A stretch of DNA of 64,000 bases from Torpedo marmorata (taxonomy: Eukaryota), in contig OZ360223.1 in assembly GCA_977017645.1 (NCBI GenBank), forward strand, positions 204,662,001 to 204,726,000, in the 5' to 3' direction. Below, piece by piece: positions 1 to 59,878 of this stretch; position 1 is the first letter of the stretch; the number at the start of each line of letters is the position of its first letter. The notes beneath the pieces were generated by a model that saw nothing but the letters and a program-made list of their open reading frames with translations, was not told the DNA's origin and made no database searches. The position numbers and the translations under genes were made by a program.

Positions 1-77
1 AAGAATTTAATGTCTTCAGGTTACTTAAGGCAGATGAGATGAACTTTAAAATCTTCAAGGTAATGAGCAAAGAAATG

Positions 78-395
78 GGAAAACACATGAGAGGGAAGGA
101 TAAAGATAAGGAAAAAGAGAGGGAACATGAGCGAAGGAAACGGCAGCGAGAGGAACAAGATAAGGCACGTAGAGAACGGGAAAGGCAGAAACGGCGAGAA
201 CAGGATGGGAAGCATTTGAAAAACTTGGATGAGAGGGAATCTAAGCGAGACTCACTGGAGGAAGGAGAGCTTCAAGAATACAAGATGGAGATAACCATTT
301 GTAATTCACCACACAGACGAGAAGGATCGATAGAGGATCGAGGTGAGGAGGAGGATTCTTCGGCAATTAAATCTCCTCAACAAACCTCCAAAAAA
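78..395 (+). pseudogene. CDK11: Intronless CDK11 (p110) N-terminal coding fragments in permuted order, captured in an LTR element
   Basis: In ORF 39-497, GKHMRGKDKDKEKEREHERRKRQREEQDKARRERERQKRREQ (78-203) matches recalled CDK11 GKHARVKEKEREHERRKRHREEQDKARREWERQKRREM. KHLKNLDERESKRDSLEEGELQEYKMEITICNSPHRREGSIEDRGEEEDSSAIKSPQQTSKK (210-395) matches KRLKNSDDRDSKRDSLEEGELRDHRMEITIRNSPYRREDSMEDRGEEDDSLAIKPPQQMSRK. No introns and no kinase domain. Confidence 0.88.
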
Positions 396-857
396 GTTGA
401 AAAGTCGTACTCCGGTTCGGTGTTCTTCATCCCCGAGAAGATCCAAGAGAGAAAGGCACCTTCCAGTACATTTAAAAGACTATGTGCAGTGACTTAAAGA
501 CTTTATTCAGTACATCGCAAAGACTATGGGCAGTGACTTAAAGACTTTGTATGTTTCCAGTTAATACATTTTAAGTTAGGTAGCGCGGGATTTATAGTTA
601 CCATGATTAGTGGAAGTTATGCTTAAATTCTCTGTAGTGTTAACATAGTTAAATTTAACTTTTATACTTATTTACCAGTAAGCACAAAACATTTTTTTGA
701 GGGGGAAGAGTGTTATGGGAACGCGCATGTGCGCGTGACGTCATATACACGGAGTTACATTGTATGATGAGGTTCAGTTTGGCACCATCTTGGCATGAAT
801 AAAGATGCTTACAGTTTTTCTCGAGTGAGGTTATTTTCAAAGGGAAAATACCCAACA
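396..857 (+). mobile_element. 3' end of a Gypsy-like LTR retrotransposon: pol tail, PPT and short 3' LTR (711-857)
   Basis: An alternative frame reads SPRRSKRERHLPVHLKDYVQ* (stop 490-492), resembling the RRSxRxRxxPxxLxDYV tail of Gypsy pol. Polypurine tract GAGGGGGAAGAG at 699-710 directly precedes TGTT...AACA (711-857), which contains AATAAA at 798-803 and TGACGTCA at 736-743. Confidence 0.75.
464..548 (+). repeat. Two-copy tandem duplication, about 44-bp period
   Basis: cagtacatttaaaagactatgtgcagtgacttaaagacttt is followed by cagtacatcgcaaagactatgggcagtgacttaaagacttt. Confidence 0.85.
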
Positions 858-862
858 ATTTT

Positions 863-1695: not shown

Positions 1696-3621
1696 TAAAA
1701 GCAATGATTTCTTTAAGGCAAGGATACTTAGGGAAATGAAGCCAAAGGAGGTAAATAGAACTGAAATATTGACCAGATGTGATTTATCTGAATCGCAGAA
1801 TAAGTTTGAGGAGCCAAGTGGCCTTCTCCTATTCTTATAGAAAGAACAAGTAAATTATCTAAATGAATAAAGGATTAGTCACACTGGAAACTGTTCCTTA
1901 TTCTTTGCAGATATGTCTTCAAACCTGCTTTGAACTATGAGCATTCTGTGTTTTGTATTACATTTCCATAATTTGTGATTGTTTGTTTGTTACTTATAAT
2001 GGTTTATTAAAATCTTATGAAAACCTGACAAAGAATAATTTAAATGTCTTTGTATAATGTATAAGTGACTTTTCATAGTAGCCTATCATGTGAGGTGAAA
2101 AATTGAGGACACAATTACAATTACAGTAATATAAAAATATTCTGTTGTACTGCTCATTTTAAAAAAAAATCCCATTCCAATTATAATCATGTAGTTTAAC
2201 AACTGAGTAAATGCCCACCTATCTGGTGCTGAACCTGTTCAAATTCGTAAATTCAGGGACAGGCTACCTATTTAAGTAACCTGTGTGTTTTCCCAAACCA
2301 TTTTCTAGCATCTCAGTGTCCATTTGTTCAAGAAATAAACAAATTGTGTCATATATTGTGCTGATGCATCCTGCTGCATTTCCAGTCTTGTATCCAGATG
2401 GTTTGTATGTCTGCAATTCAAGTGTATTACTATTGTATAGGATAACAGTCCATCAAAGTGCTGTTGAGTCGAGGCCATGGGAACATCTTGCCCAAGATTT
2501 TCAACTCCAGCCAAGGGCCTCAGGCATTACTGTGTTTGCAGTCAGAGAACAAAGTTCAGTAAATGTCATCTGAATAAATTGGGACTTAGTATGTCCAAGT
2601 CTAAATATATTGGCCCTCACTGGAGCTATGTCCTTAAACCTTAGATAGGCACTAGATTTCTGCCTGTTTTTCAGTTGCAAGCATAACAAGAAAGCCTCTT
2701 TTACTCTTAAACTGGCTGTGATTGTGGACATGGGTGAAACTCTATGCATCAGATTATCACTGCTTATCCTTTTATTCTCAAATTGAAGGGACTCAAAATG
2801 AGTTAGTCTACGGGGATCAAAAATTCAGCAAGAATTGTGAATTATGTTGGTATATTTATTTTCATTATCCCTTAAGATATAAATGTTTGGCATCATAGAT
2901 AGCAGTTTATTATGAGGTATATTGAGTTGGCTGGGAATTAAAGGCAAAGGACTAAGTAAATATTGAAAAATAATGATTTCAATTGCAATTCTCAATTTTT
3001 AAAATTTACTCCTGACGATAAAGGTGTTAATTTATTTCTGTATATACTTTTTATTATCTAATCATAGAGCAGGTTTACCGGCTAACCTCTGGATAACTCT
3101 TGCTGTTATTTAATATTATTTGGTTAATTATTATTTTAACTATCTCCGGCTAAAATATGCACACATTATGATGATACATCCAAAAGAAATCAAAACAGGA
3201 TTTCATGATTCACAAGATGTTTTTGTACTTTCTACTTTTAACGTATTTTTATTAGCTCAATAAAACCTTCCTATTGTGTCAGTGCATTTGAATAAAACTC
3301 CTGGCCATGAGTGAATTACAAGCATTTCTATGTTTATTGCAGGCACTAAGTTGTCAATAAAAAGAGAATTCTGTGCCATATTTTAAAGTTATATTTAAAC
3401 CCCATGTGTATAAGGATGGAATAAAAACTTCTGCACTGCCCTGGATTTGGGGAGGAATTTGAAGTCAAACTCTGTGTATATTACTTAAACATTTAAAAAA
3501 TGAGCAGAGTTCTTTTCGTTTGAATGAGTCTGCAATATGTCTGTTTTTCCCTTGTAAAACAGTGCTTTTGGCCAATTCAAGTCTCTAAAACAGAGTGGAT
3601 GAAGTTTTAGCATTCTGCAGA

Positions 3622-5289: not shown

Positions 5290-5453
5290 GTAAAGGTTCC
5301 ATTATTGTCACATAATACTACATTTAGAACATAACATACATGAAATTCTTTAACTTTGTCCAGCGCCCCTCACAGAAATGAGGCCCCAGCAAGGAGCGAA
5401 CTCACAACCCCTGGTTTACAAGACCAGTGCTCTAACCACTGAGCTATGGAGCC
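5290..5453 (-). mobile_element. Short SINE: tRNA-Thr head plus Rex-like LINE tail
   Basis: Downstream on the minus strand, GAATTTCATG...TGACAATAA matches the tail motif of the Rex copies at about 31517-31545 and 53250-53277. Confidence 0.6.
5381..5453 (-). tRNA. tRNA-Thr(UGU)-derived sequence, probably a pseudogene or SINE head
   Basis: Reverse complement GGCTCCATAGCTCAGTGGTTAGAGCACTGGTCTTGTAAACCAGGGGTTGTGAGTTCGCTCCTTGCTGGGGCCT, 73 nt, anticodon TGT. T-arm shows CpG-decay changes and the T-loop A58 is C. Confidence 0.85.
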
Positions 5454-6911: not shown

Positions 6912-8285
6912 TCTTTTTAAAATATTTTTATTGAGAACATATATCACATATACATGATCCATAATAGACAAATAGTACATCTTTTCGTATGCATATAGTA
7001 TAACTTATAGTGCTACATAGAACTATTTTCATATAGATCACAGTTAAATTCTATTTGATTTAAAAAAATAAACTGTAATAGACACAGATAAACCCATTTC
7101 CCAATTAATCAAAATAAGAAAGGAAACAAACAAAAAAAAAGGTTTAATTTAATATTTGAACATCTAATTTTTTCTAATGTTAAATAGGACATTAAACTTG
7201 ATAGCCAATCTTCATAGATAGGAGGATTACCATCCTTCCATTTTAGCAAGATCTGTCGCCTTGCAACCAGAGAAGAAAAAGCAATCACATGTTTTTGATT
7301 ATTAGTAAGATCATGATTACCAGAATCATTTATACCAAGTATTGCTATAAATGGATTTGGATCTAATTGAGTAGCTAAAACCAAAGAAAGAGTACAAAAA
7401 ATTTTGTTCCAAAATCTAACTAACTTAGGGCACAACCAAAACATGTGAAATAATGTACCTTCATGAACATTACATCTATCACACATAGATGACATATTTG
7501 ATGAAAATTTAGCCAGTAAAGATTTCGAGTAATGAGCTCTGTGAACTACTTTGAATTGAATTAAATTATGTCTTGCACATAATGAAGAGGTATGGATACG
7601 GTCCAAAATATTGGACCACACTGAAGGTGAAAAAACTTCTAAAAAATCTCTTTCCCAAGCCTCCTTTATTTTATCCACATGCTGTATCACATTTTCTTTT
7701 AAAATGTTATAAAATACTGACAATGGTTTTGGTATATCAGGAGTGATAGTAAAAACCTTTTCTATGATTACTAACTTTAAATTTAAAGGAAACTCCAATC
7801 TCAAAGAATTTATAAAATTCCTAACTTGAAAGTATCTAAAATAATTTTTTCTAGATAAGTTATACTTATTAACCATCTATTCAAAAGTAATAAAATTAGA
7901 ATCTATAAACAAGTATTTAAATGAACATATACCGTGATCTTGCCAAATCTGGAACCCTCTATCCCCACTAGCTGGGGTAAAAAAAGGTATTGAAATTTAT
8001 TGTACTAACTATCAAGCAAAAAATTAAGAAAATTATTTGCTTTTCTGAATTGGAACCATATTTTTAACGTTTGTTTAACTATCTTGTTATTAGAAATTTT
8101 GGAATATTTAAAGGGTGAAGGCATTCCGGATATAGATACTAACGAATGTTTACCTGTAACATTCATTTCTGATTTCATCCATTTAAATCTTTCTTGATAA
8201 TTCTTAAAATGTATCCAAATATTAATAAATCTAATGTTAGCAGCCCAATAATAATTCCTGAAATTAGGTAAAGCAAAACCACCCT
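6912..8285 (-). mobile_element. 5'-truncated L1 ORF2 3' end (copy A)
   Basis: GGFALPNFRNYYWAAN near 8283; ORF 7109-7876 with CDRC...GTLFHMFWLCP zinc knuckle; AATAAA and A-rich end near 6912-6932. Confidence 0.88.
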
Positions 8286-8289
8286 AATT

Positions 8290-8961
8290 CTATTCTAACC
8301 CCTTCCTCGAATCAAGATTGCCATTTAGAAGAAAAAAAAGAGTACAAATATGGATCAAATAGCAACCTCCCGACCTCAGACAAAGACTCCTCGGAGCATC
8401 CAAATCTCTTAAATCTTCCAATCATGATAAAATTCCATGAATGGGCCCCAGATCTTTTCAAATTGAAAGTTATTGTCTTTAATGTTGTATCTAATTTTCG
8501 TTTGACTTAAACACAACATTACATCGTGTAACCACTGTGTATGCATAGGGGAGGAATCTTCTTTCCATTTCAATAGAATTGCCCGTCTGGCTATCAACAT
8601 AGTAAAAGCTAAAACTTTCTCCTGGGTTGCAGATATAAGTATATCCGGTGCTCGTGAAAATCCAAATAAGGCAATTAATGGACATTTTTGTATTTTAAAC
8701 TTAAAAATCATTGATAAAATTTGAAATATATTTCCCCAAAAACTTCCTAAATTTGGACATTCCCAAAACATATGAATCAATGAAGCTTCAAAATTTTTTA
8801 ATTTCTCACGTCAATATCAGCATAAAAAAACGAGATAATTTATGTTTAGACATGTGTACTCTATGTACCACTTTAAATTGTAATAAACAGTGCCTGGCAC
8901 AGAATGAGGAATCATTGATCAAACTAAGAGTAGAATGCCAGTCTTCATCTGAAAAAGTTAT
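8290..8961 (-). mobile_element. L1 ORF2 C-terminal fragment (copy B, a different subfamily)
   Basis: SSFCARHCLLQFKVVHRVH and IHMFWECP...IARRAILLKWK...IWGPF; homologous to copy A but clearly diverged. Confidence 0.88.
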
Positions 8962-9243
8962 GTGTGGATCCTTGATGATTGCTGCTGCTCTAGGATGGCA
9001 GTGTTCCCTGTAGATATTCTTGATGGTGGGGAGGGTATTGCCTGTGATGTCCTGGGCTGTGTCCACTACCTTTTGCAGGGCTTTACGCTCAGGGGTATTT
9101 GCACCAGACCAGACCATAATGCAGCCGGTTGGCATATTTCCACCACACATCTGTAGAAATTTGCCAGGGTTTCCAATGTCATACCAAACCTTCACAAACT
9201 CCTGAGGAAGTAGAGGCACTGACGTGCTTTCTTCACGATGCCA
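8962..9243 (-). mobile_element. Rex1/Babar-type LINE, proximal half
   Basis: VKKARQCLYFLR...LANFYRC and RKALQKVVDTAQDITG; joins 6538-6911 through the 12-bp duplication GTGTGGATCCTT. Confidence 0.8.
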
Positions 9244-9809: not shown

Positions 9810-9915
9810 CCAAAAACACAAATGCTGGAGAAACTCAGCAGGTCAAACAGTGTCCTTTATGTAGCAAAGATAAAAATACATAACCAACATTTCGGGCTTG
9901 AACCCTTCATCAAAT
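9810..9915 (-). mobile_element. Penelope terminal repeat fragment with hammerhead-like motif
   Basis: Near reverse complement of 11158-11260. Confidence 0.8.
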
Positions 9916-10771: not shown

Positions 10772-11298
10772 GACCGCAACAACAGCGACCTCCCAGTAGC
10801 CAACCATTTCAATTCCGGGTCACACTCCCACACTCACATGTCTGTCCATGGCCTTATGTACTATCCCACCCAGACTACCCGCAAATTGGAGGAGCAACAT
10901 CTCATTTTCCGTCTCGGCACTCTCCAGCCAGATGGCATTAACATTGACTTTTCTGCTTTCCACTAAACCTGCTTGTCGTTCCCTTCCCCTCCCCCCTCAC
11001 CTGTCCTTCCTGTTTTTCTCCAGCTACCTAGCCATCCCTCCTCCCCCTCTTTGCTGCTGTCCCCTCCCTCCTATCTCCACCTATCATCTCCTGCCTTTGC
11101 CACCCCCCTTCCCCCCTCACTCTTTTGTTCGGACGCTTACCGGCATTTTCTCATACTTTGATGAAGGGCTCAAGCCCGAAACGTCAGTTATGTATTTCTA
11201 CCTTTGCTACATAAAAGACACTGTTTGACCTGCTGAGTTTCTCCAGCATTTGTGTTTTTTACTTCAACCACGGTGTCTACAGATTTTCGTGTTTTACT
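10772..11298 (+). mobile_element. Penelope-like element 3' end (GIY-YIG C-terminus plus terminal repeat)
   Basis: DLPVANHFNS...RKLEEQHLIFRLGTLQPDGINIDF*, then a pyrimidine-rich tract and the terminal repeat. Confidence 0.9.
11152..11192 (+). ncRNA. Minimal type I hammerhead ribozyme-like motif (U3 variant)
   Basis: CATACT-TTGATGA-A-GGGC-TCAA-GCCC-GAAA-C-GTC-AGTTATG gives stem I, core, stem II and a palindromic ACGT stem III; predicted cleavage after 11185. Confidence 0.6.
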
Positions 11299-27260: not shown

Positions 27261-28730
27261 AGAAGTGAAAGGCACAACTCTGGTGGTTTAGAAAGGACAA
27301 TAAAAAGGTGAAGCTGTTTTTAAAAAAAAAATAATCAGAACAACAATTTAAGATATGATACCTCAAAGTGAACTTTGATGTTTTAATTTGCATTTACAAG
27401 TAGAAAATTGGTTATTGTTGAGGGAAAAACACCACAGTGGAAAAAAAATCATAATTATTATTACATTTAACTGAAAGTTCCTTACTGTTAATTATTTTTC
27501 TTCCCAAAATATCTCTCTCCACATTTTCACTATGTCCAGCAAGAATAGGGTTAAGCAGAAAATAACATATACAGTTTCAACAGTGGGTCAATACTGACTT
27601 GAACAAAGGTTTCATCAAGATTTAATTCTTTTCTCTCTTGCTTTCACAATGTGTCTTCGGATGTCTCTCTCACTCTGCCTCTCGCCTGCACTCAACATCC
27701 TCTTAACTGAAGTTCTTCGGCGAAAACTAAAATGTAAAAAAGGAAATGTATTCCAGTATAAGTCTATCATCTATCAAGGCACTGACAGATGGCTTGCTGG
27801 ATTGTGTTTCATTATAAAACATCGCAAGAGCCACTCAGATTCATCCTGACACGCTTTGAAAAATTCTGAAAGAATTGGCAGCCAACCTGTTAGGGAGGAG
27901 ACCAGATTAGAAATTACAGTCAAACATGCACATCTTTTTAATGCTTGAATAAATGCCATTCATAATCAACTATTTGTACATAATGGGATTACCTTCTTAT
28001 CTTTAGCAGTTTGCTTTTGTTTTCTACCAATCTACCTGATGATTCTGATTTTACACGTTAACATGTTATTATCCATGCTTCAGTTTAGCAGTTGCTATTG
28101 TGCGTTTATGATGATAGTTAATGATACTATTTGTAAAACATTTATATTTTTTGTTTTGGGTAGTTTGATTCAATGCCAGGATTCTACTTGGTTATTTCCC
28201 CAAGAATGATACAGAAGTGTCCTCTATGATTAAGCACTAGATGTTAGGAAGGAATTCAGATGAAAGGGTACTCTGACCAATCCAAGCAATCCAAATGAGT
28301 TAAGGGTGAAGAAAAGATATTTACAATAAGTTCGTAATGAAAGCAGAATTGCTCTAATGCACCAATGCTGCTCTGATATAGTTGCAACATTAGCAATCAG
28401 GGATCAACACTTTAATGTCTTTAATACCTGCTTTTACTGTAATGCCATAAACGAGCAACTATTTCACAGGATTATAGGGGTGATTGAAGACTACCTTAAA
28501 AAATGAAGGTGCAACAGTAAGCCTCAAATATCCATTCAGTTGTCTCCATTGCATTGGTAATTATCTATTGCTTGTTTCTGCATGAGCATTTCATATTAAT
28601 ATTTTGGCCTTTGCCTATGTGGCAGATAGGTATGAGCATATGCTTCATTATCACCTTAGGAAAGGAAAGACCATGTGAACTTTACAGAAAGGTGATGTAT
28701 GGGCAATTTTCCAGGATAGTTCGTTTCGAT

Positions 28731-43921: not shown

Positions 43922-44869
43922 ATGGGTAAGAAGATCAAGAACCTAATCGCTGTGGAGGAAGGGGCCTCCGGATCGCCGACATCAGCGGGTGATTCTCCTC
44001 GCGGGAGCGGCGGTTCGGGAACCTCCGGAGCCTCCGTCATGGCGCCGGCGCTGGAGCGGGTGAGTGGGGCCCCAGAACCCACGTCACAAGACATTCTGAA
44101 CGCTGTGCAAGCTCTCGCAGGTAGAATCACAAAAGAATTTCTGGGCTCGACGCCAAGTTTTCTGGGCAGGATGCCAAGTTTAAAGAGATCGCAGAGGGGA
44201 TTAAAAAGCTCAAGAGCTCCTTTGGAGTTTTAACCTCCCGCGTGGGGGAGGTGGAAGAAAAAATGGAGGGCATCCAAGAAAGGTTAGAGAAGCACGAAGA
44301 CAGCGTGGATGCCCGGAAACTGGAGAGGGACGAGATCCTAAATAAAATTGACAGGCTGGAAAACTTCAGCAGGAAAAACAATATAAGAATAATTGGTCTG
44401 AAGGAGGGGCGAGAGGGCAAAGATCCAGTGAAATGTTTTGAAGGGTGGATTCCAAAAATCCTGGGCCAAGAAAATTTTAAAAAAAACTTTATCCATAGAA
44501 AGGGCCCAGCAGATCCTCGGATCCCGGCCAGACTCAGGTCAATGACCAAGACCAGTCCTGGTGCGGTTGTTAAATCACCAGGACCGGGAAAGGATCCTAC
44601 GCGCGGCAGCCACACGTGCAAGAGAAGATGGCGGGCCCAATGATCCAGAGGGGGGGAAGGTGGTTTTTTTTCCAGACCTGAGCGTGGCCTTGGTGAAGCG
44701 TCGGAAGGCATTCGACGCAGTAAAGCGGCAACTGAGAGCGAAGGAGATTCCATATGCGCTACTCCACCCCGCGACGCTGAGGCTCGACACACCAGAAGAA
44801 GGAAGAAAATTCTTCAAGACACCCCAGGAAGCTTCAGACTTTGTTCGAAACCGTCCGAGGAGATCCTAA
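43922..44869 (+). pseudogene. L1 ORF1 (frameshifted)
   Basis: Coiled coil, then LENFSRKNNIRIIGLKEG and FFPDLS...RRKAF...YALLHPATLR, spread over several frames. Confidence 0.9.
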
Positions 44870-45342
44870 GGCTTGGAGGAAAAAAACGAGGAGAGAAGAA
44901 AGATTTTGATGGACGTTGGTTAAGGGGGATGGTTTGGTTTTTTGTAATAGTAACGTTATATTGAGTTGTGTTATATCGAGCAAATAGTGGCTTTTAAGGT
45001 AAATAATATAAATAGGTAATGAATCCGGGGGGAGTTGGGTGGTATAAAGTTAGATAGTTAGTTAGTTAATTACCGGTAAATATGCTAAAAGAGGCATCAA
45101 GTGTACCTCGTCTTGAGTGAGTTGATGGCGCCAAAAGAGTAGGGGTTATTGTTGGTGCTGGAGTAAGGGGAAGGGATACTTTCTTAAAACCGCAGTCTTT
45201 TATCGAGGGCTTTTGGGTTTTTTTTTAGCGTCATCGCCAGTACTGAAGAGATATATATATTATTGTAAAAGGGGACAGTCACACCATAGAAAAAATATAC
45301 AAAGGGGCTATGAAAATAGGATAAAACTGTGTATGTATCCAA

Positions 45343-48300
45343 ATGAATAAGACTTTAAGATTTCTTAGCTTTAATGTTAATGGATTGAATGGACCCATAA
45401 AGAGGAAAAGTCTTGGCTACAGGCAGATATAGTTTTCTTACAGGAAACTCATCTTAAAAAGCAAGAGCATGGTAAATTAAAAAGAGGTTGGGTGGGACAG
45501 ATAGCTTCATCTTCTTTTAACTCTAAAGCTAGGGGGGGGACACGGTTGTTGACTCGGCAGGAAGATATGTGATGGTACATTGTCAGATCTACTCAGAACC
45601 CTGGACACTCTTGAATCTCTATGCACCAAATTTTGATGATGAGTCATTTATGTAGGATATTTTTTTGAAAGTGGCAGAAGGATGGTAGAATATTTTGATT
45701 GGTGGGGATTTCAACTTTTGTTTGGATCCCATTCTGGACAAATCAGCAAGGACAGTTAGGAAAGTCAGGGTGGCTAAAACCACCTTGGCTTTCATGAAAG
45801 ATTTAAATCTAATAGATGCATGGAGACAGTTGCACCCTCAAGCTAGAGACTACTCCTTTTACTCAAAGCCCCATGATTCTTATACCAGAATTGACTATTT
45901 CCTGATGTCGGCACAACTAGAAGGTAGAGTGATTGAATCGGAATATCAAGCCAGACTTTTATCGGACCACGCGCCCTTGATTTTGTCTATGGTAATGCCA
46001 GATAAACAAGCTAATGTGTACAGATGGCGCCTTAATTCTACGCTGTTGAAAAGACCAGATTTCTGTAATTTTATAAGGGGTCAGATAAGTTTGTTTTGCG
46101 AAACAAACTGCCCCTCTACTAATAATAGTTTTCTAATATGCGACACATTGAAGGTGTATCTAAGGGGGCAAATAATTTCATACACCAAAAATGTCAAGAA
46201 AAATTATATGGCGGAAATAAACAATTTGGAGGGGGAGATTTTAAAATTGGAAAAGGAATACCAACAGTCGGGATCAAAAGAAAAATATCAAACTTTGGTA
46301 AATAAGAAACTTAAATATAATACTTTACAAACATACAAAATGGAGAAGGACATTTTAAGATCTAAGCAGAAATACTATGAATTAGGGGAAAGAGCACATA
46401 AGGTTTTGTCTTGGCAATTGAGGACAGAGGAGACTTTGAGGACAATTAATGCAGTTCAGTCGGGACCGGATAAGATATCGTACAATCCAAAAGAGATCAA
46501 TTACACTTTTAAACAGTTTTATGCAAAATTGTACGAGTCAGAGTCGCCAAGTGACTCAACTAAAATAGATGAGTTCCTATCCACGATTGAATTGCCAAAG
46601 TTGGACCAGGAGGATCAGATGGAATTAGGTGCCCCATTCTCCGAAGAGGAGATTGAAAAAACATTGGGTTCTCTACAGGCGAATAAATCGCCAGAAGAAG
46701 ATGGTTTCCCACCTGAGTTCTACAGAGAGTTTAAGGATCTTTTGATGCCTCTTATTATGAATGTAGTTAACCAGGCGGCGGAAACACAGACTCTCCCGGA
46801 ATCCTTTTCAACAACTATTATTACGGTTATACCAAAGGAAAATAGAGACCCATTAAAACCTTCTTCATACAGGCCCATTTCATTATTAAATGCAGACGAC
46901 AAAATAATAACCAAGGCATTGGCTAATAGATTGGGTCAATATTTACCAAAATTGATAAATTCGGATCAAGTCGGCTTTATTAAGAAGAGACACTCGGCCA
47001 ACAATTTGGGCAGACTATTGAGTATCATACATTTGGCACAATCAAAGGCAGATCCAAGTATAGCCGTGTCTTTGGATGCGGAAAAAGTTTTAGGTAGGCT
47101 GGAATGGCCTTTCTTATTCAAGGTACTGGAGAAATTTGGATTGGGAGAATCATTTATTAATTGGGTAAGAACACTCTATTACAAACCTCAGGCCAAGATC
47201 ATTACGAATGGCCAGATATCGTCGACATTCCCCTTAAGTAGGTCTAGCAGACAGGGCTGTCCACTGTCTCCAGGTCTTTTTATCTTGGCAATTGAGCCAC
47301 TGGCAGAATCTATTAGGCGGGACCCAGACATAAAAGGATTCAGGGTGGACCAGGTGGAACATAAAATTAATTTATTAGCAGATGATGTGCTGTTGTATTT
47401 GACAGACCCTGCCGAGTCCTTGGCCAGGTTGCAGACCACACTGGAAGATTACGGAATGATTTCGGGTTACAAAATCAATTTAGAAAAAAGTGAGATCATG
47501 CCGTTGACAAAATTTGATTACGGGGAATATCAACACAAGAGTCGCTTTAAGTGGCAACCAAAGGGTATTAAATATTTGGGAATAATGATTGACAATGATT
47601 TGCAAAATTTGTATAGACTTAACTACCTCACTCTGCTTGGAAAGATCGAAGACAATTTACTTAGGTGGAGGGACCTGCCCATTACTCTAGTGGGCAGGGT
47701 GAACTGCATTAAAATGAAGGTGATGCCGAGACTGCAATACCTCTTTCAGTCCTTGCCAATCCCATTGCGTGGGTCTTTTTTAAAGCACTTAACAGACATG
47801 TAAGGCAATTTATCTGGAGTGGTAAGGTCTCCAGAGTTTCCATAGAGAAGCTGACATGGGATTACAATTTGGGGGGTTTGCGATTACCAGATTTTAAGAA
47901 ATATTATTTAGCAGCTCAGTCGAGGTTTCTTTCATCCTTTTTCTCGGGGGACGATCCCCCCTTGTGGGTCCAAATTGGACTACACACCATAGGAGAGAAA
48001 ATAGCGAAGGATTTTATCTACAAATGGAACACCAAATTAATATCTAGGCGAACGGACAATCCCATTCTAAAACATATGATTAAGATTTGGCAGGAAATCA
48101 TTTAATGTACTGGAGGAAAGGTGGGTAACAAAATTTTAAACATTTGGCACCAGAAGGGACTCCGATATATTGAAGACTGTTACGAGAAAGGACAACTTAT
48201 GTCTTTTGAGCAATTGAAGAGTAAATATGATTTGTCTAATGGAACCTTCTACTTAGTCTTCAACTAAGGTCCTTCTTGAGGGATAGATGGGGTCCTACAA

Positions 48301-49000
48301 TGACCCCACCTCGGTGTAATGAAATGGAAAAGTTGCTTCGATTGGGAAATGCACCTAAATTCATATCGAGAATGTATTTCGTACTCCAAAGCGAAAGCCC
48401 TAAGCCGGGCCTACAAAGATCGAGAGAGAGGTGGGAGTTGGACTTGAGAACAAAAATTCACGAACGATGCTGGTCAGACTGGTGTTTAGATAGCAGGACA
48501 GCAGTCTTTAATGCCAGATATAGGCTGGTTCAATATAATTTCCTACACCAATTGTATCTCACACCACAAAAACTACACAAGTCAAAACCAGAAATATCAG
48601 AAATGTGTTTCAGGTGTGGGATAGAAATTGGATCCTTTTTACACTCCACTCATGTGCAAAGGTAAGGCCCTTTTGGCATGATTTAGCTAACACACTAACT
48701 AGGATTACGGGAGTAGCCTTCCCACTAGACCCGGAGTTGTATCTTTTAGGAAACCTCATGGACATAAGCAACAGATGATCTAAATTCCAAATTCAATTTG
48801 TAAAAGTTGCTCTGTCCGTAGCAAAAAAATGCATTGCAGTTACTTGGAAGTCCGACTCCCCCCTTCTCATCACTCGATGGTCTACAGAAATGTACAGCTG
48901 TATCCCCATGGAAAAAATTACATATATTCTTAGAAATAAGTACGATAACTTTGTTAAAGTGTGGCAACCATACTTGGAGCACATTGGTGATCAGTTGTAA
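45343..49000 (+). pseudogene. L1 ORF2 (APE endonuclease, RT, zinc knuckle), disrupted
   Basis: MNKTLRFLSFNVNGL at 45343, GGDFN, SDH, YRPISLLN, RQGCPLSP, LLADD and CFRC. Has stops and frameshifts, and the DAEKAFD motif reads DAEKVLG; longest open stretch 45695-47803. Confidence 0.93.
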
Positions 49001-49660: not shown

Positions 49661-49781
49661 ACTCATTTATTAATAGGTCAGCAATTAACAAGCTAAGCAT
49701 CCTGACACCTACTGAACACATGGCAGGCACTTATGTTCAATGTAGTTTGGCTGAACACTGGCGTTTATTGACAAAAGATTT
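49661..49781 (+). repeat. 121-bp inverted duplication, copy 1
   Basis: Exact reverse complement of 51558-51678 by manual comparison. Confidence 0.95.
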
Positions 49782-51557: not shown

Positions 51558-51678
51558 AAATCTTTTGTCAATAAACGCCAGTGTTCAGCCAAACTACATT
51601 GAACATAAGTGCCTGCCATGTGTTCAGTAGGTGTCAGGATGCTTAGCTTGTTAATTGCTGACCTATTAATAAATGAGT
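51558..51678 (-). repeat. 121-bp inverted duplication, copy 2
   Basis: Exact reverse complement of 49661-49781 by manual comparison. Confidence 0.95.
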
Positions 51679-53230: not shown

Positions 53231-55890
53231 TCAGAATCAGAATCAGAATTTATTGTCATGAACAAGTCATGAAATTCGGTGTTTTGCGGCAGCATCATAG
53301 TGCAATTAACATTCATATTAACCATCTTACGACATTACTATAAAAAATTATAAACAATAGTGCACGAAAAGTAAGGCAGTGTCTTTGGTTCATTGATTAT
53401 TCAGGAATCTGATGGCAGCGGGGAAGAAGCTGGCCTTGTGCCGTTGAATGCTCCAGGACAGATCCTCGGAGATGTTGACACCCAGGAATTTGAAGTTCTT
53501 GACCCTCTCCACTACTGAGCCCTCGATGAGAACTGGGTCATGTTCCCCTGACTTCCTCCTGAAGTCCACAATCATCTCCTTGGTTTTGCTGACGTTGAGC
53601 TCAAGGTTGTTGCCATTACACCATTCAACGAGCTGATCTATCTCCCTCCTTTACGCTTCCTCATTGCCGTTTGTGATTCTGCCGACAACTGTGGTGTCAT
53701 CAGCAAACTTGTAGATGGCATTGGAATTATGCCTGGCCACACAGTCATGGGTGTATAACGAGTAGAGCAGTGGACTAAGCACGCATCCTTGGGGTGCGCC
53801 TGTGTTGATAATCAGTGAGGAGGAGACGTTGTTTCCAATTCGTAGTGACTGTGGTCTTCCGATGAGAAAGTCAAGGATCCAGTTGCAGAGTGGGGTACAG
53901 AGGCCTAGAGTTTGTAGCTTCTTGACCAGCACTGAGGGAATAATGGTATTGAAGGCCAAGCTGTAGTGGATGAAGAGCAGCCGCATGTATGAATTGTTGT
54001 TTTCGAGGTGATCCAGAGCTGAGTGGAGAGCCAGCAATATTGCATCTGCTGTGGAGCGATTGTGACGATAGGCGAATTGCAGTGGGTCCAGATCTTTGCT
54101 TAGGTATGTGTTAATTCTGGCCATGACCAGCCTCTCAAAGCATTTCATCACGGTAGAAGTTAGTGCTACTGGGTGGTAGTCGTTGAGGCAGCCCACACTA
54201 CTCTTCTTGGGTACCGGGATGATTGATGCCCTTTTGAAGCAGGTGGGAACCTCTGACTGCCGCAATGAGAGGTTGAAAATGTCCGTGAACACTCCGGCTA
54301 GTTGTTTGGTGCAGATTTTCAGTACCCTGCCAGGTACGCCGTCAGGGCCTGACGCCTTGCGAGGGTTCACCCTCTTGAATGATGTTCTGATGTCGCCCTC
54401 AGAGACAGATATCACAGGGTCCTCAGCCTTTTCAGGGATTCTAGTAGGCACTGTTTTGTTCTTCTTCTCAAAGCGGGCATAGAAGGTGTTCAGCTCATCG
54501 GGTAGTGAAGCATCACAGCCGTCTATAGTGTTCGCCCTCGCTTTGTAGGCTGTAATGGCCTTCACTCCCTGCCATAGCTGGCGTGTATCTGTCTCTGTCT
54601 CTAGCTTCCTCCGGAATTGCCACTTTGCTTCAGAGATGGCCTTCCGCAGGTCGTGCCTGGACGTCTTGTAAAGATCCCAGTCCCCGGCCTTAAATGCCCT
54701 TGTTCTCGTCCTCAGCAAGTTGCGAATTCTCTGATTCATCCAAGGCTTCTGGTTGGGGAACACCCGGTATTTGCACGTGGGCACACACTCATCCACGTAG
54801 GTCTTGATGAAGTCGGTGACACCTGTTGCATATTCATTTAGGTCTATGGCTGAGTGCTTGAATATGCTCCAGTCCACCGATTCAAAGCAGTCCTGCAGAC
54901 GCTCCTCCGCCCCCCTCGACCATACTTTTGCCGTCCTCACCACTGGTGCTGTGGTCTTCAGTCTCTGCTTGTATGCTGGGAATAGAAGTACAGCCAGGTG
55001 ATCAGACTTGCCGAAGTGCGGTCGTGGTATGGCTCGGTATGCGTTCTTCACGGTGGTGTAGCAGTTGTCGAGTGTGTTGGTTCCCCTGGTCTCGCATGTG
55101 ATGTGTTGGTGGTAGTTTGTCAGTGACTTCTTCAGATTGACCTGATTGAAATCTCCCACAATGATCAGGAAGGCATCAGGATGTGCTGTCTCATGGCTGT
55201 TTATCACAGTGCTCAGTCCCTCCAGTGCCAGCCTGACGTTAGCCTGGGGCGGAATGTACACTGCGACTAGGATGATGGCGGTGAACTCCCTCGGCAGATA
55301 GAATTGGCGACACTTGATCGCCAGATGTTCCAGGTCGGGGGAGCAGGACTGGGACATGACCGTCACGTCTGTGCACCACGATGAATTGATGATGACACAA
55401 ACGCCGCCTCCCCTGGTTTTTCCAGACGCCGGTGTTCGGTCAGCACGATGGAGGGTGTAGCCCTTGGGCTGTAGCGCCGTGTCCGGAATGTCCGCGTTTA
55501 GCCACGTTTCTGTAAAGCACATCACGCAGCACTCCCTGATGACTCTCTGATGTTGAAGTCTGGCTTGAAGTTCATCAAGTTTGTTCTCCAAGGATTGTAC
55601 GTTGGCCAGGAGGATGGTAGGGAGCGGAAGCTTCAGGTCCCCGCGTCTCAGCTTAACCTGTAGCCCCCCTCTACGTCCACATGGTCGGGTCTTCTTTACC
55701 TGGCCCGTGGGTCTGCTGCTGGTCGTTCCCGCAGTGTTTAAACGGTCCGTGCGCTGTCCCTTTAAATCCTTCGCAATGTTTAAGTGTGCTGAGTGCCTGC
55801 TGACTGCGACTCCTGCAAAGTTTAACTGGCCTGTTCTCTACCATTGATAGTTTATTAAAGTTGATAGCGTCTACAGGGAGTGGTGTACCA
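53231..55890 (-). mobile_element. Near full-length Rex1/Babar-type LINE (APE plus RT) with a 3' internal deletion
   Basis: PTILLANVQSLENKL, CFTETW, GDFN, SDH, PQGCVLSPLLYSLYTHDC and KFADDTT in ORF 53651-55591, which ends at a premature stop; (TTCTGA)n tail. 3' UTR is nearly identical to the 31360-31557 copy. Confidence 0.92.
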
Positions 55891-55892
55891 AA

Positions 55893-57222
55893 GAACCATA
55901 GAACATTACAGCACAGAAACAGGCCTCCTCGGCCCTTCTAGTCCGTACCAAACCATTTATTTTGCCCAGTCCCACTCTCCTGCACTCAGTCCATAGCCCT
56001 CCATACCCCTCCCATCCATGTACCTGTCCAAATTCCTCTTAAATGTTAAAATTGAGCCTGCATTCACCACTTCAGCTGGAAGCTCGTTCCACACCCCCAC
56101 CACTCTCTGTGTGAAGAAGTTCCCCCTCATGTTCCCCCTAAACTTTCCCCCTTTCATTCTTAACCCACGTCCTCTGGTTTGTATCTCACCTACCCTCAGT
56201 GGAAAAAGCCTATCTACATTTACTGTCTATCCCCCTCATAATTTTAAATACCTCTATCAAATCTCCCCTCATTCTTCTGCGCTCCAGGGAATAAAATCCT
56301 AACCTGTATAACCTTTCCCTGTAACTCAGTTCCTGAAGTCTGGGCAACATCCCAGTAAATCTTCTCTGCACTCTTTCTATCTTATTGATATCTTTCCTTT
56401 AGTTAGGTGACCAAACCTGCACACAATACTCCAAATTTGGCTTAACCAATGTCTTATACAACTTTAACATAACATCCCAACTCCTGTACTCAATACTTTG
56501 ATTTATGAAGGCCAATATGCCAAAATCTCTCTTTACAACCCTATCCACCTGTGACGCCACTTTCAGGGAATTATGTATCTGTATTCCCAAATCCCTCTGT
56601 TCTACCGCACTCCTCAGTGGCCTAACATTTACCGTGTATGTCCTTTCTTAGTTTGTCCTTCCAAAATGCAGCACCTCACACTTGTCTGCATTAAATTCCA
56701 TCTGCCCTTTTTCAGCCCATTTTTCCAGCTGATCCAGATCCCTCTGCAAGCTTTGAAAACCTTCTTCGCTGTCCACACCTCCAATCTTAGTGTCATCTGC
56801 AAACTTGCTGATCCAATTTACCACATTATCATCCAGATCATTGATATAGATGACAAACAACAATGGTCCCAGCACCAATCCCTGAGGCACACCACTAGTC
56901 ACAGGCCTCCAGTCTGAGAAGCAATCATCCACCACTACTCTCTGGCTTCTCCCGTCCAGCCATTGTCGAATCCAGTTTACTACTTCACCATGAATACCTA
57001 GCATCTGAACCTTCCTGACTAACCTCCCATGTGGGACCTTGTCAAAGGCCTTACTAAAGTCCATGTAGACAACATCCACAGCCTTTCCTTCATCAACTTT
57101 CCTGATAACCTCCTCGAAAAACTCTATAAGATTGGTTAAACACGATCTACCATGCACAAAGCCATGTTAACTATCCCTAATCAGTCCATGGCTATCCAAA
57201 TAATTGTATATCCGATCTCTTA
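55893..57222 (-). mobile_element. 5'-truncated CR1 LINE
   Basis: GRSCLTNLIEFFE, YMDFSKAFDKVPH, SGVPQG, KFADDTK and RGNFFTQRVV, then the CR1 tail. Confidence 0.93.
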
Positions 57223-57774
57223 CAACACCAGATACTGAAGGATTTCATTTTGACCCCAATGCTCCTGCACAAATAAGTTACTCCCAAAGATAGGTTCCTT
57301 CTTCTTGGTGTGCACCATGACCGTGGAATTGAACTATTGGCACGCTGCTGGCAGAGGGCAGAGCAGAAGGGAAAGAAAGGGACCTCATAGCAAGTCATGT
57401 CTGCTACAGTATTTGGAGACTAATTATTGTGTCTAAGTAAGAAAGAATGTGGCAGCCAATCTTCTGTAAAAACATTCTTAGTAAGATGTGTCAATTATTC
57501 CAGCCAGATGGAAAATTCAGATCTGTGAGGAAACGGCATTGCCACTAGCTGTTGTGGCCTAAGGCCAGGCCTATCTTTTATGTGTCAGAAACATCATGGG
57601 TTGGATCTGTAGATGTCTCACTATTTCCTACAAAGCCTCACTACTTCTCATCCAGAGAGCACAATGATAGCTTTTTTGACAGGCCTGTCAATACACCCAG
57701 TGTTTAATTCTGCATCCCTAACCCTGCTACAAAAGGCAGATCAGAGATGTCTATCTGAATCGCCTGCAGCAAGA

Positions 57775-59405: not shown

Positions 59406-59878
59406 GTAAAAACACAAAATGCTGGAGAAGCTCAGCAGATCAAACAGTGTCCTTTATGTAGCAAAGGTAAAGATACATAACTGACGTTTCAGGCTTGAGC
59501 CCTTCATCAAAGTATGAGAAAATGCCGGCAGGCGTCCGAACAAAAGAGTTGGGGGGGGAGGGGTGGCAAAGGCAGGAGATGATAGGTGGAGAAAGGAGGG
59601 AAGGGACAGCAGCAATGAGGGGGAGGAGGGATGGCTGGCTGGCCATCCCTCCTCCCCCTCATTGATGCTGTCCCCTCCCTCCTTTCTCCACCTATCATCT
59701 CCTGCCTTTGCCACCCCTTCCCCCCCCCTCTCCCACTCTTTTGTTCGGATGCCTGCCGGCATTTTCTCATACTTTGATGAAGGGCTCAAGCCCGAAATGT
59801 CGGTTATGTATCTTTACCTTTGCTACATAAAGGACACTGTTTGACCTGCTGAGCTTCTCCAGCATTTTGTGTTTTTAC
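59406..59878. repeat. Foldback of two inverted Penelope terminal repeats
   Basis: Arms of about 230-237 bp meet at GGGATGGC-TGGCTG-GCCATCCC (about 59628-59649). Each arm carries a hammerhead-like motif (59476-59516 on -, 59768-59808 on +). Confidence 0.93.

Follow-up and report, generated by a model that had tools for sequence, protein, structure and literature searches.

Swapped CDK11 coding pieces beside a putative LTR-element 3′ end in the genome of Torpedo marmorata

The first 857 nucleotides of the window (the whole 64,000-nucleotide stretch of Torpedo marmorata DNA analysed here, contig OZ360223.1, positions 204,662,001 to 204,726,000) hold two pieces of CDK11 coding sequence, A and B, followed by a stretch laid out like the end of an LTR element (Table 1). 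Piece A extends on its 5′ side past the window edge at position 1. Searches with 61 CDK11 queries recovered no further CDK11 pieces in 411-64000, and none of the 61 matched anything within 411-857.

Table 1. Features of the CDK11 copy and the adjoining element-like sequence (window coordinates)
Feature	Positions	Strand	Description
Open frame	3..497	+	Spans both pieces (A, B) plus roughly 28 codons of the element tail read out of frame
CDK11 piece A	1..200	+	3′ part of a cassette exon (3-77) joined without an intron to the exon that follows (78-200)
Non-colinear A/B junction	201..203	+	One CAG codon; in frame; mid-exon on both sides
CDK11 piece B	204..410	+	Final 7 codons (204-224) from the first coding exon, then downstream coding sequence; mid-exon end
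CDK11/element junction zone	390..410	+	From sequence and alignment
Pol/integrase C-terminal-like tail	411..492	+	Frame 1 (...RRSKRERHLPVHLKDYVQ), stop at 490-492; from translation
Tandem duplication, 44 bp	464..551	+	Spans the pol-like stop; 90% identity between the copies over 41 nt
AT-rich 3′ untranslated stretch	552..698	+	Ends in a T-run; from sequence
Polypurine tract (PPT), 12 nt	699..710	+	Abuts the LTR-like unit
Putative 3′ LTR, 147 bp	711..857	+	TGT...ACA, imperfect terminal inverted repeat, TGACGTCA at 736, AATAAA at 798
Candidate 3′ half of target-site duplication	858..862	+	ATTTT; from sequence only

The CDK11 part derives from a batoid gene. Among the best 120 of 762 protein matches, the closest were CDK11 of skates, sawfish and stingray (E down to 2e-34), which bears out the initial annotation of this stretch as CDK11 N-terminal coding sequence. 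Piece A (bases 3-200) is identical at 61 of 66 residues to amino acids 187-252 of Pristis CDK11 (P0003), and piece B (bases 204-410) at 57 of 68 to amino acids 83-150 of the same protein, or at 58 of 68 to each of the Hemitrygon (P0005) and Leucoraja (P0001) proteins. Additionally, the copy shows three diagnostic residue states (RLKN-type, no DK insertion, GKHM) that are combined in 9 of the 61 named cartilaginous-fish proteins listed, all from skates, a stingray or a sawfish.

The swapped order of the pieces, which the initial annotation did not state, is the one unusual feature of the locus. Piece A precedes piece B in the copy, whereas B precedes A in 60 of the 61 named cartilaginous-fish CDK11 proteins among the matches listed, and the sole exception is missing one of the pieces. 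The two do not overlap in parental coordinates. The CDK11 identity, the batoid source, the swapped order and the drift described below form the observed part of our explanation.

Exon limits were drawn from isoform pairs of annotated proteins and not from gene sequence. On these limits, introns are absent from the copy at about 77/78, where the cassette exon joins the next exon, and at about 224/225, where the first coding exon joins its successor (isoforms P0033 and P0045); no AG acceptor immediately precedes either position in the window sequence. Thus, we conclude that the template was probably a spliced RNA, in keeping with the intronless CDK11 sequence reported earlier. The ends of the pieces appear to fall within exons: A stops at amino acid 252, 9-10 codons short of the inferred end of its exon (about 261-262), B begins at amino acid 83, about 36 codons after the inferred start of its exon (about 47), and the 3′ end of B, within 390-410, likewise lies mid-exon, as do all visible CDK11 ends on the isoform evidence.

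Positions 3-77 form part of a 42-codon CDK11 cassette exon present in 14 of the 119 named matches listed, all from cartilaginous fishes (P0003, P0012, P0032-P0036, P0044, P0046, P0051-P0053, P0056 and P0059), and in none of the 58 named matches listed from other vertebrates. The copy therefore keeps an isoform known here from cartilaginous-fish proteins only, and its presence suggests that this isoform existed in germ-line or early-embryo cells.

Downstream of CDK11, the sequence 411-857 presents in turn an integrase-C-terminus-like tail, a stop, a short untranslated region, a PPT and an LTR-like unit, a layout that fits a Ty3/Gypsy element without env. The window keeps no reverse transcriptase or integrase core of this element, and the 149 ORFs of at least 72 codons beyond position 3000 gave only LINE domains and low-complexity matches and no other LTR-element domains. 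The tail carries a motif that resembles the C-terminus of a Gypsy integrase, and the element is probably of Gypsy type on that basis, although Pfam, protein sequence searches, the Atlas and a literature search gave the motif no support. One protein search with the tail returned a single candidate and none at E<=10; another gave one unnamed 2128-aa protein, 45% identical over 23 aa, which counts neither for nor against the assignment, and the best Atlas match (0.80), also unnamed, is a lead only. For 411-857 as a whole, Pfam, protein and Atlas searches yielded nothing usable on similarity to any LTR family, and a literature search on the LTR ends found no support. The earlier statement that CDK11 runs straight into a Gypsy-type pol tail thus stands in part: a tail-like sequence does follow, but in frame 1 against frame 3 for CDK11, which means that the two do not make a CDK11-pol fusion protein, and the Gypsy label is unconfirmed. 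The two copies in the tandem duplication at 464-551 differ at 4 of 41 positions, which would make them about as old as the CDK11 drift if each diverged by about 5%.

The PPT (699-710) and the 147-bp TG...CA unit (711-857), followed by ATTTT, are placed as they were in the initial annotation. A composite LTR-end pattern (PPT, TGT, AATAAA and terminal inverted repeat), composed after the element had been seen, had 711-857 as its sole match when both strands of the window were scanned, and occurred once in 60 shuffled plus strands. The unit has a CpG observed/expected ratio of 1.11 against 0.37 for the window, and CpG density falls at its end: 26 CpGs lie in the first 857 nt and 9 in the 1143 nt that follow (Fisher p 2e-4), which supports 857 as an edge. 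At 723-743 the unit is rich in CpG and includes a perfect TGACGTCA palindrome, which is presumably CRE-like. A looser form of the LTR-end pattern gave a second site at 27747 that was rejected on inspection as a chance match.

The view that 711-857 is not an LTR, or that the join is an assembly artefact, draws on the failure to find either a family match or a partner LTR within the window; no second copy of the 147-bp unit occurs anywhere in the 64 kb. However, the rarity of the composite pattern in shuffles and the CpG step at 857 make this view highly improbable. Additionally, the copy differs by about 4-6% from all sampled CDK11, and so is not a misjoined live gene unless the host gene is unusually divergent.

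Also to be weighed is an origin by non-LTR (L1-type) retrotransposition, or as a rearranged CDK11 pseudogene fragment, inserted into or beside an older LTR element. LINE reverse transcriptases are present in the window, and a run of six A's at 390-395, in the junction zone, could have primed internally. These A's are, however, CDK11 coding sequence, and CDK11-like codons continue to 410; the longest A-run in 396-710 is 4, so that a poly-A tail is absent, as was noted at the outset. Like an L1-type processed pseudogene, the locus is a copy of spliced mRNA without introns, but it differs from one in having no poly-A, in not being anchored at the mRNA 3′ end, in its swapped order, which such an origin does not explain, and in its LTR-type flank. 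The remaining parts of the element match an internal replacement. We regard an L1-type or rearranged origin as very unlikely. The earlier proposal of capture inside an LTR element rather than an L1-made pseudogene accordingly fits the mid-exon ends, the missing poly-A and the LTR-type layout of the 3′ end, while the searches above gave no homology to a family.

In our best reading, a non-autonomous LTR element resident in a batoid genome is preserved here by its 3′ end, and spliced CDK11 RNA has taken the place of its internal region. The PPT and LTR-like end lie 300 nt downstream of the CDK11 part, and the residual element (about the last 27 pol-like codons, the untranslated region, PPT and LTR) is as expected for such a replacement. 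The anatomy of the locus and the literature together point to an LTR element and to template switching, and we consider LTR-mediated retroposition of spliced CDK11 RNA with one extra template switch, taken to include a swap during later replication, to be the probable explanation. Counted against it are the 5′ LTR, primer-binding site and target-site-duplication partner, which are not visible within the window, the searches that matched the tail and LTR-like unit to no family, and the position of the pieces, which lie where a circle running from the first coding exon to the exon of A would place them.

Under LTR-mediated retroposition, reverse transcriptase would first have copied the LTR, PPT, 3′ untranslated region and pol tail, in its own direction of travel, and then jumped to CDK11 mRNA mid-exon at about 395-410. 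It would next have copied CDK11 back into the first coding exon, giving piece B, before a second jump at 201-203 to CDK11 RNA lying further 3′, whether in that molecule or in a different one, from which piece A would have been copied. Alternatively, the swap may date from a later round of the element's replication. The first of these jumps would fall in the zone 390-410. There, either CDK11 continues with one codon inserted at 396-398, or the switch took place at about 395 within an imperfect stretch common to both templates; as microsimilarity at a switch point this zone is suggestive only.

This account has close parallels in the available text of Tan et al. 2016, where partial mRNA copies take the place of an LTR element's internal ORFs through template switching, switches fall at short similar stretches (microsimilarity at 25 of 29 Drosophila junctions), some events involve more than two switches, and the products can spread as non-autonomous elements (PMC5131818). 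There the process is known in zebrafish, chicken, mouse and fly, and an LTR origin is given for 5 of 7 zebrafish retrocopies (PMC5131818). The present locus resembles those retrocopies in that partial spliced mRNA replaces ORFs, without poly-A and with mid-exon ends. It differs in that both pieces stem from a single gene, with their order swapped, and in that the host is a cartilaginous fish, whereas the multi-switch cases described in that text joined different genes (PMC5131818). A literature search covering few subscription journals found no LTR retrocopy in cartilaginous fish, no CDK11 retrocopy with an LTR and no exons scrambled by template switching. As an LTR-mediated retrocopy, the locus extends a known process to cartilaginous fishes.

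The swapped order also offers a small natural test, in which sibling copies could separate a second switch on linear mRNA from reverse transcription of a circular template. Such a template would be a CDK11 circle in which the exon of A, or one further 3′, is back-spliced to the first coding exon, and the element could have packaged it; reverse transcription across the back-splice site would yield the swapped order, and the join would later have been lost in an in-frame deletion, which for the smallest circle comes to about 135 nt (about 45 codons). Dong et al. 2016 defined circRNA-derived pseudogenes by an exact non-colinear back-splice join and reported little poly-A and LTR sequence nearby, leaving the mechanism of circRNA retroposition open (PMC4897178). 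Non-colinear order and lack of poly-A, both seen here, are marks of such pseudogenes; the mouse circRFWD2 copies are accompanied by MMERVK10C LTR sequence, and exon 2 is the acceptor in 4 of 5 named high-confidence circles (PMC4897178). In our locus, B begins within the first coding exon, every visible stretch of CDK11 falls inside such a circle, and A and B do not overlap.

The junction between the pieces argues the other way. Lying mid-exon on both sides, with 9-10 codons missing at the end of A's exon and about 36 at the start of B's, it rules out an intact back-splice, and a clean back-splice was rejected on this ground. We therefore do not file the locus as a circRNA-derived pseudogene: the order is non-colinear, but the exact back-splice join is absent. 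The circular template needs an additional deletion placed over the join, and the only CDK11 circle described in the papers listed is a human one of 49.6 kb and not a short circle (PMC6368736, PMC9730599). On balance, a circular template is possible but doubtful. The mouse circRFWD2 copies with MMERVK10C-int share with our locus the non-colinear order, lack of poly-A, adjoining LTR sequence and an earlier piece from the first coding exon; the circRNA-derived pseudogenes differ in being mammalian and ERV-associated, with an exact back-splice, whereas the junction here is mid-exon on both sides.

A fuller version, in which a Gypsy-type element of a ray packaged circular CDK11 RNA, reverse-transcribed it and gave rise to a product that multiplied as a non-autonomous family, seems to us unlikely. 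If a circular template were nonetheless involved, the locus would be a circRNA-derived retrocopy outside mammals with the PPT and LTR of the responsible element still attached, and template switching in an LTR particle would be a route of circRNA retroposition, the question left open by Dong et al. (PMC4897178). That selection, as an added layer, also kept the permuted RE/RD-rich ORF is barely credible.

The CDK11 frame has stayed open. Frame 3 is open over 3-497, exactly as first reported, with 136 CDK11 codons uninterrupted by frameshifts and an in-frame join of A and B; the last stretch of about 28 codons is read-through into the tail. The claim that the CDK11 pieces are in frame with whatever lies upstream is correct in that the frame is open from position 3, but 3-77 is itself CDK11, and the claim therefore gives no information on any gag or pol fusion. 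Batoid states aside, the copy carries 14 substitutions and one extra codon relative to the orthologues, and its distance of about 4-6% from every sampled CDK11 is the implied neutral divergence. Many of the substitutions fall on sites invariant across all aligned orthologues, with L to S, P to S, D to E and H to Y among the changes at residues invariant in 61 of 61. Some of the 14 may be specific to the host lineage rather than to the copy. Drift appears lower in A (4 of 66) than in B (10 of 68), a difference that is not significant (p 0.16).

Selection was judged from amino-acid proxies only, namely stop count, BLOSUM sum and D/E excess. The frame would remain free of stops under neutrality with a probability of 0.25-0.43; as an open frame is thus expected in 25-43% of cases, its openness does not show function. 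The summed BLOSUM score of the changes lies within the neutral expectation (p 0.30-0.40). D/E swaps make up 4 of the 14 changes (p 0.002-0.017, for a class picked post hoc), and this excess, with the in-frame join of A and B, hints at constraint or at an unsampled host lineage. Taken together, the residue changes suggest that the copy is now drifting, and a function is unsupported.

An ORF that is or was under selection, encoding a charged RE/RD-rich peptide that aids the element or the host, for example via splicing, would agree with the 136 open CDK11 codons, the in-frame join, the lack of frameshifts and the excess of D/E swaps. A precedent exists in crocodilian ERVs, which, in the available text, hold captured host ORFs under purifying selection, with KIT-ligand in CrocERV29 and nectin3 in CrocERV31 (PMC4299795). 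Those captures resemble ours in placing host mRNA within an LTR element of a non-mammalian vertebrate, but they are described there as almost whole, colinear ORFs that retroviruses carry in several copies and that purifying selection maintains (PMC4299795), whereas a short permuted fragment is found here.

Against selection, the copy has altered residues invariant in all 61 orthologues, the overall severity of its changes matches neutrality, the frame could well have stayed open by chance, and an annotated chimeric protein was not found among the matches listed. None of the 22 matches of similar length, 10 of them unnamed, covers more than 48% of the query, so that no protein spanning A and B was found among them; the best 120 of 762 longer matches likewise showed no chimera by name, their names being only CDK11/PITSLRE, hypothetical or uncharacterised. 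The absence of a chimeric protein among the matches listed is a weak test of the mobile family suggested at the outset, of which the window shows a single copy, since such copies are seldom annotated. The protein of 3-494 gave no match in a PDB sequence search, and neither it nor the tail had a significant Pfam domain. We judge a selected ORF improbable, and the carrying of a working RE/RD-rich domain finds no support, near-invariant residues having been altered.

Beyond the element, GC content ranges over 31-53% in 2-kb bins, and LINE remnants are abundant. Those at 44125-48919 (+), 53651-55837 (-), 56648-57394 (-) and 7109-9078 (-) carry reverse transcriptase, endonuclease or zf-RVT domains, two of them with ORFs of more than 700 codons. 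Searches did not bear out the idea that an L1 remnant occupies 858-2000. At 1895-1945 (+), about 1 kb 3′ of the LTR, a pyrimidine-rich stretch that ends in AG at 1909-1910 resembles a splice acceptor. ARAGORN and Rfam (61 bits) both identify a tRNA-Thr(TGT) at 5380-5453 (-), either a real gene or a tRNA-derived repeat. Perfect 121-bp inverted repeats at 49661-49781 and 51558-51678, about 2 kb apart with no Pfam match between them, are possibly the ends of a young non-autonomous DNA transposon. Finally, 59406-59878 holds a MITE-like palindromic repeat (92%, about 470 bp) with partial relatives at 9812-9914 and 11028-11275.
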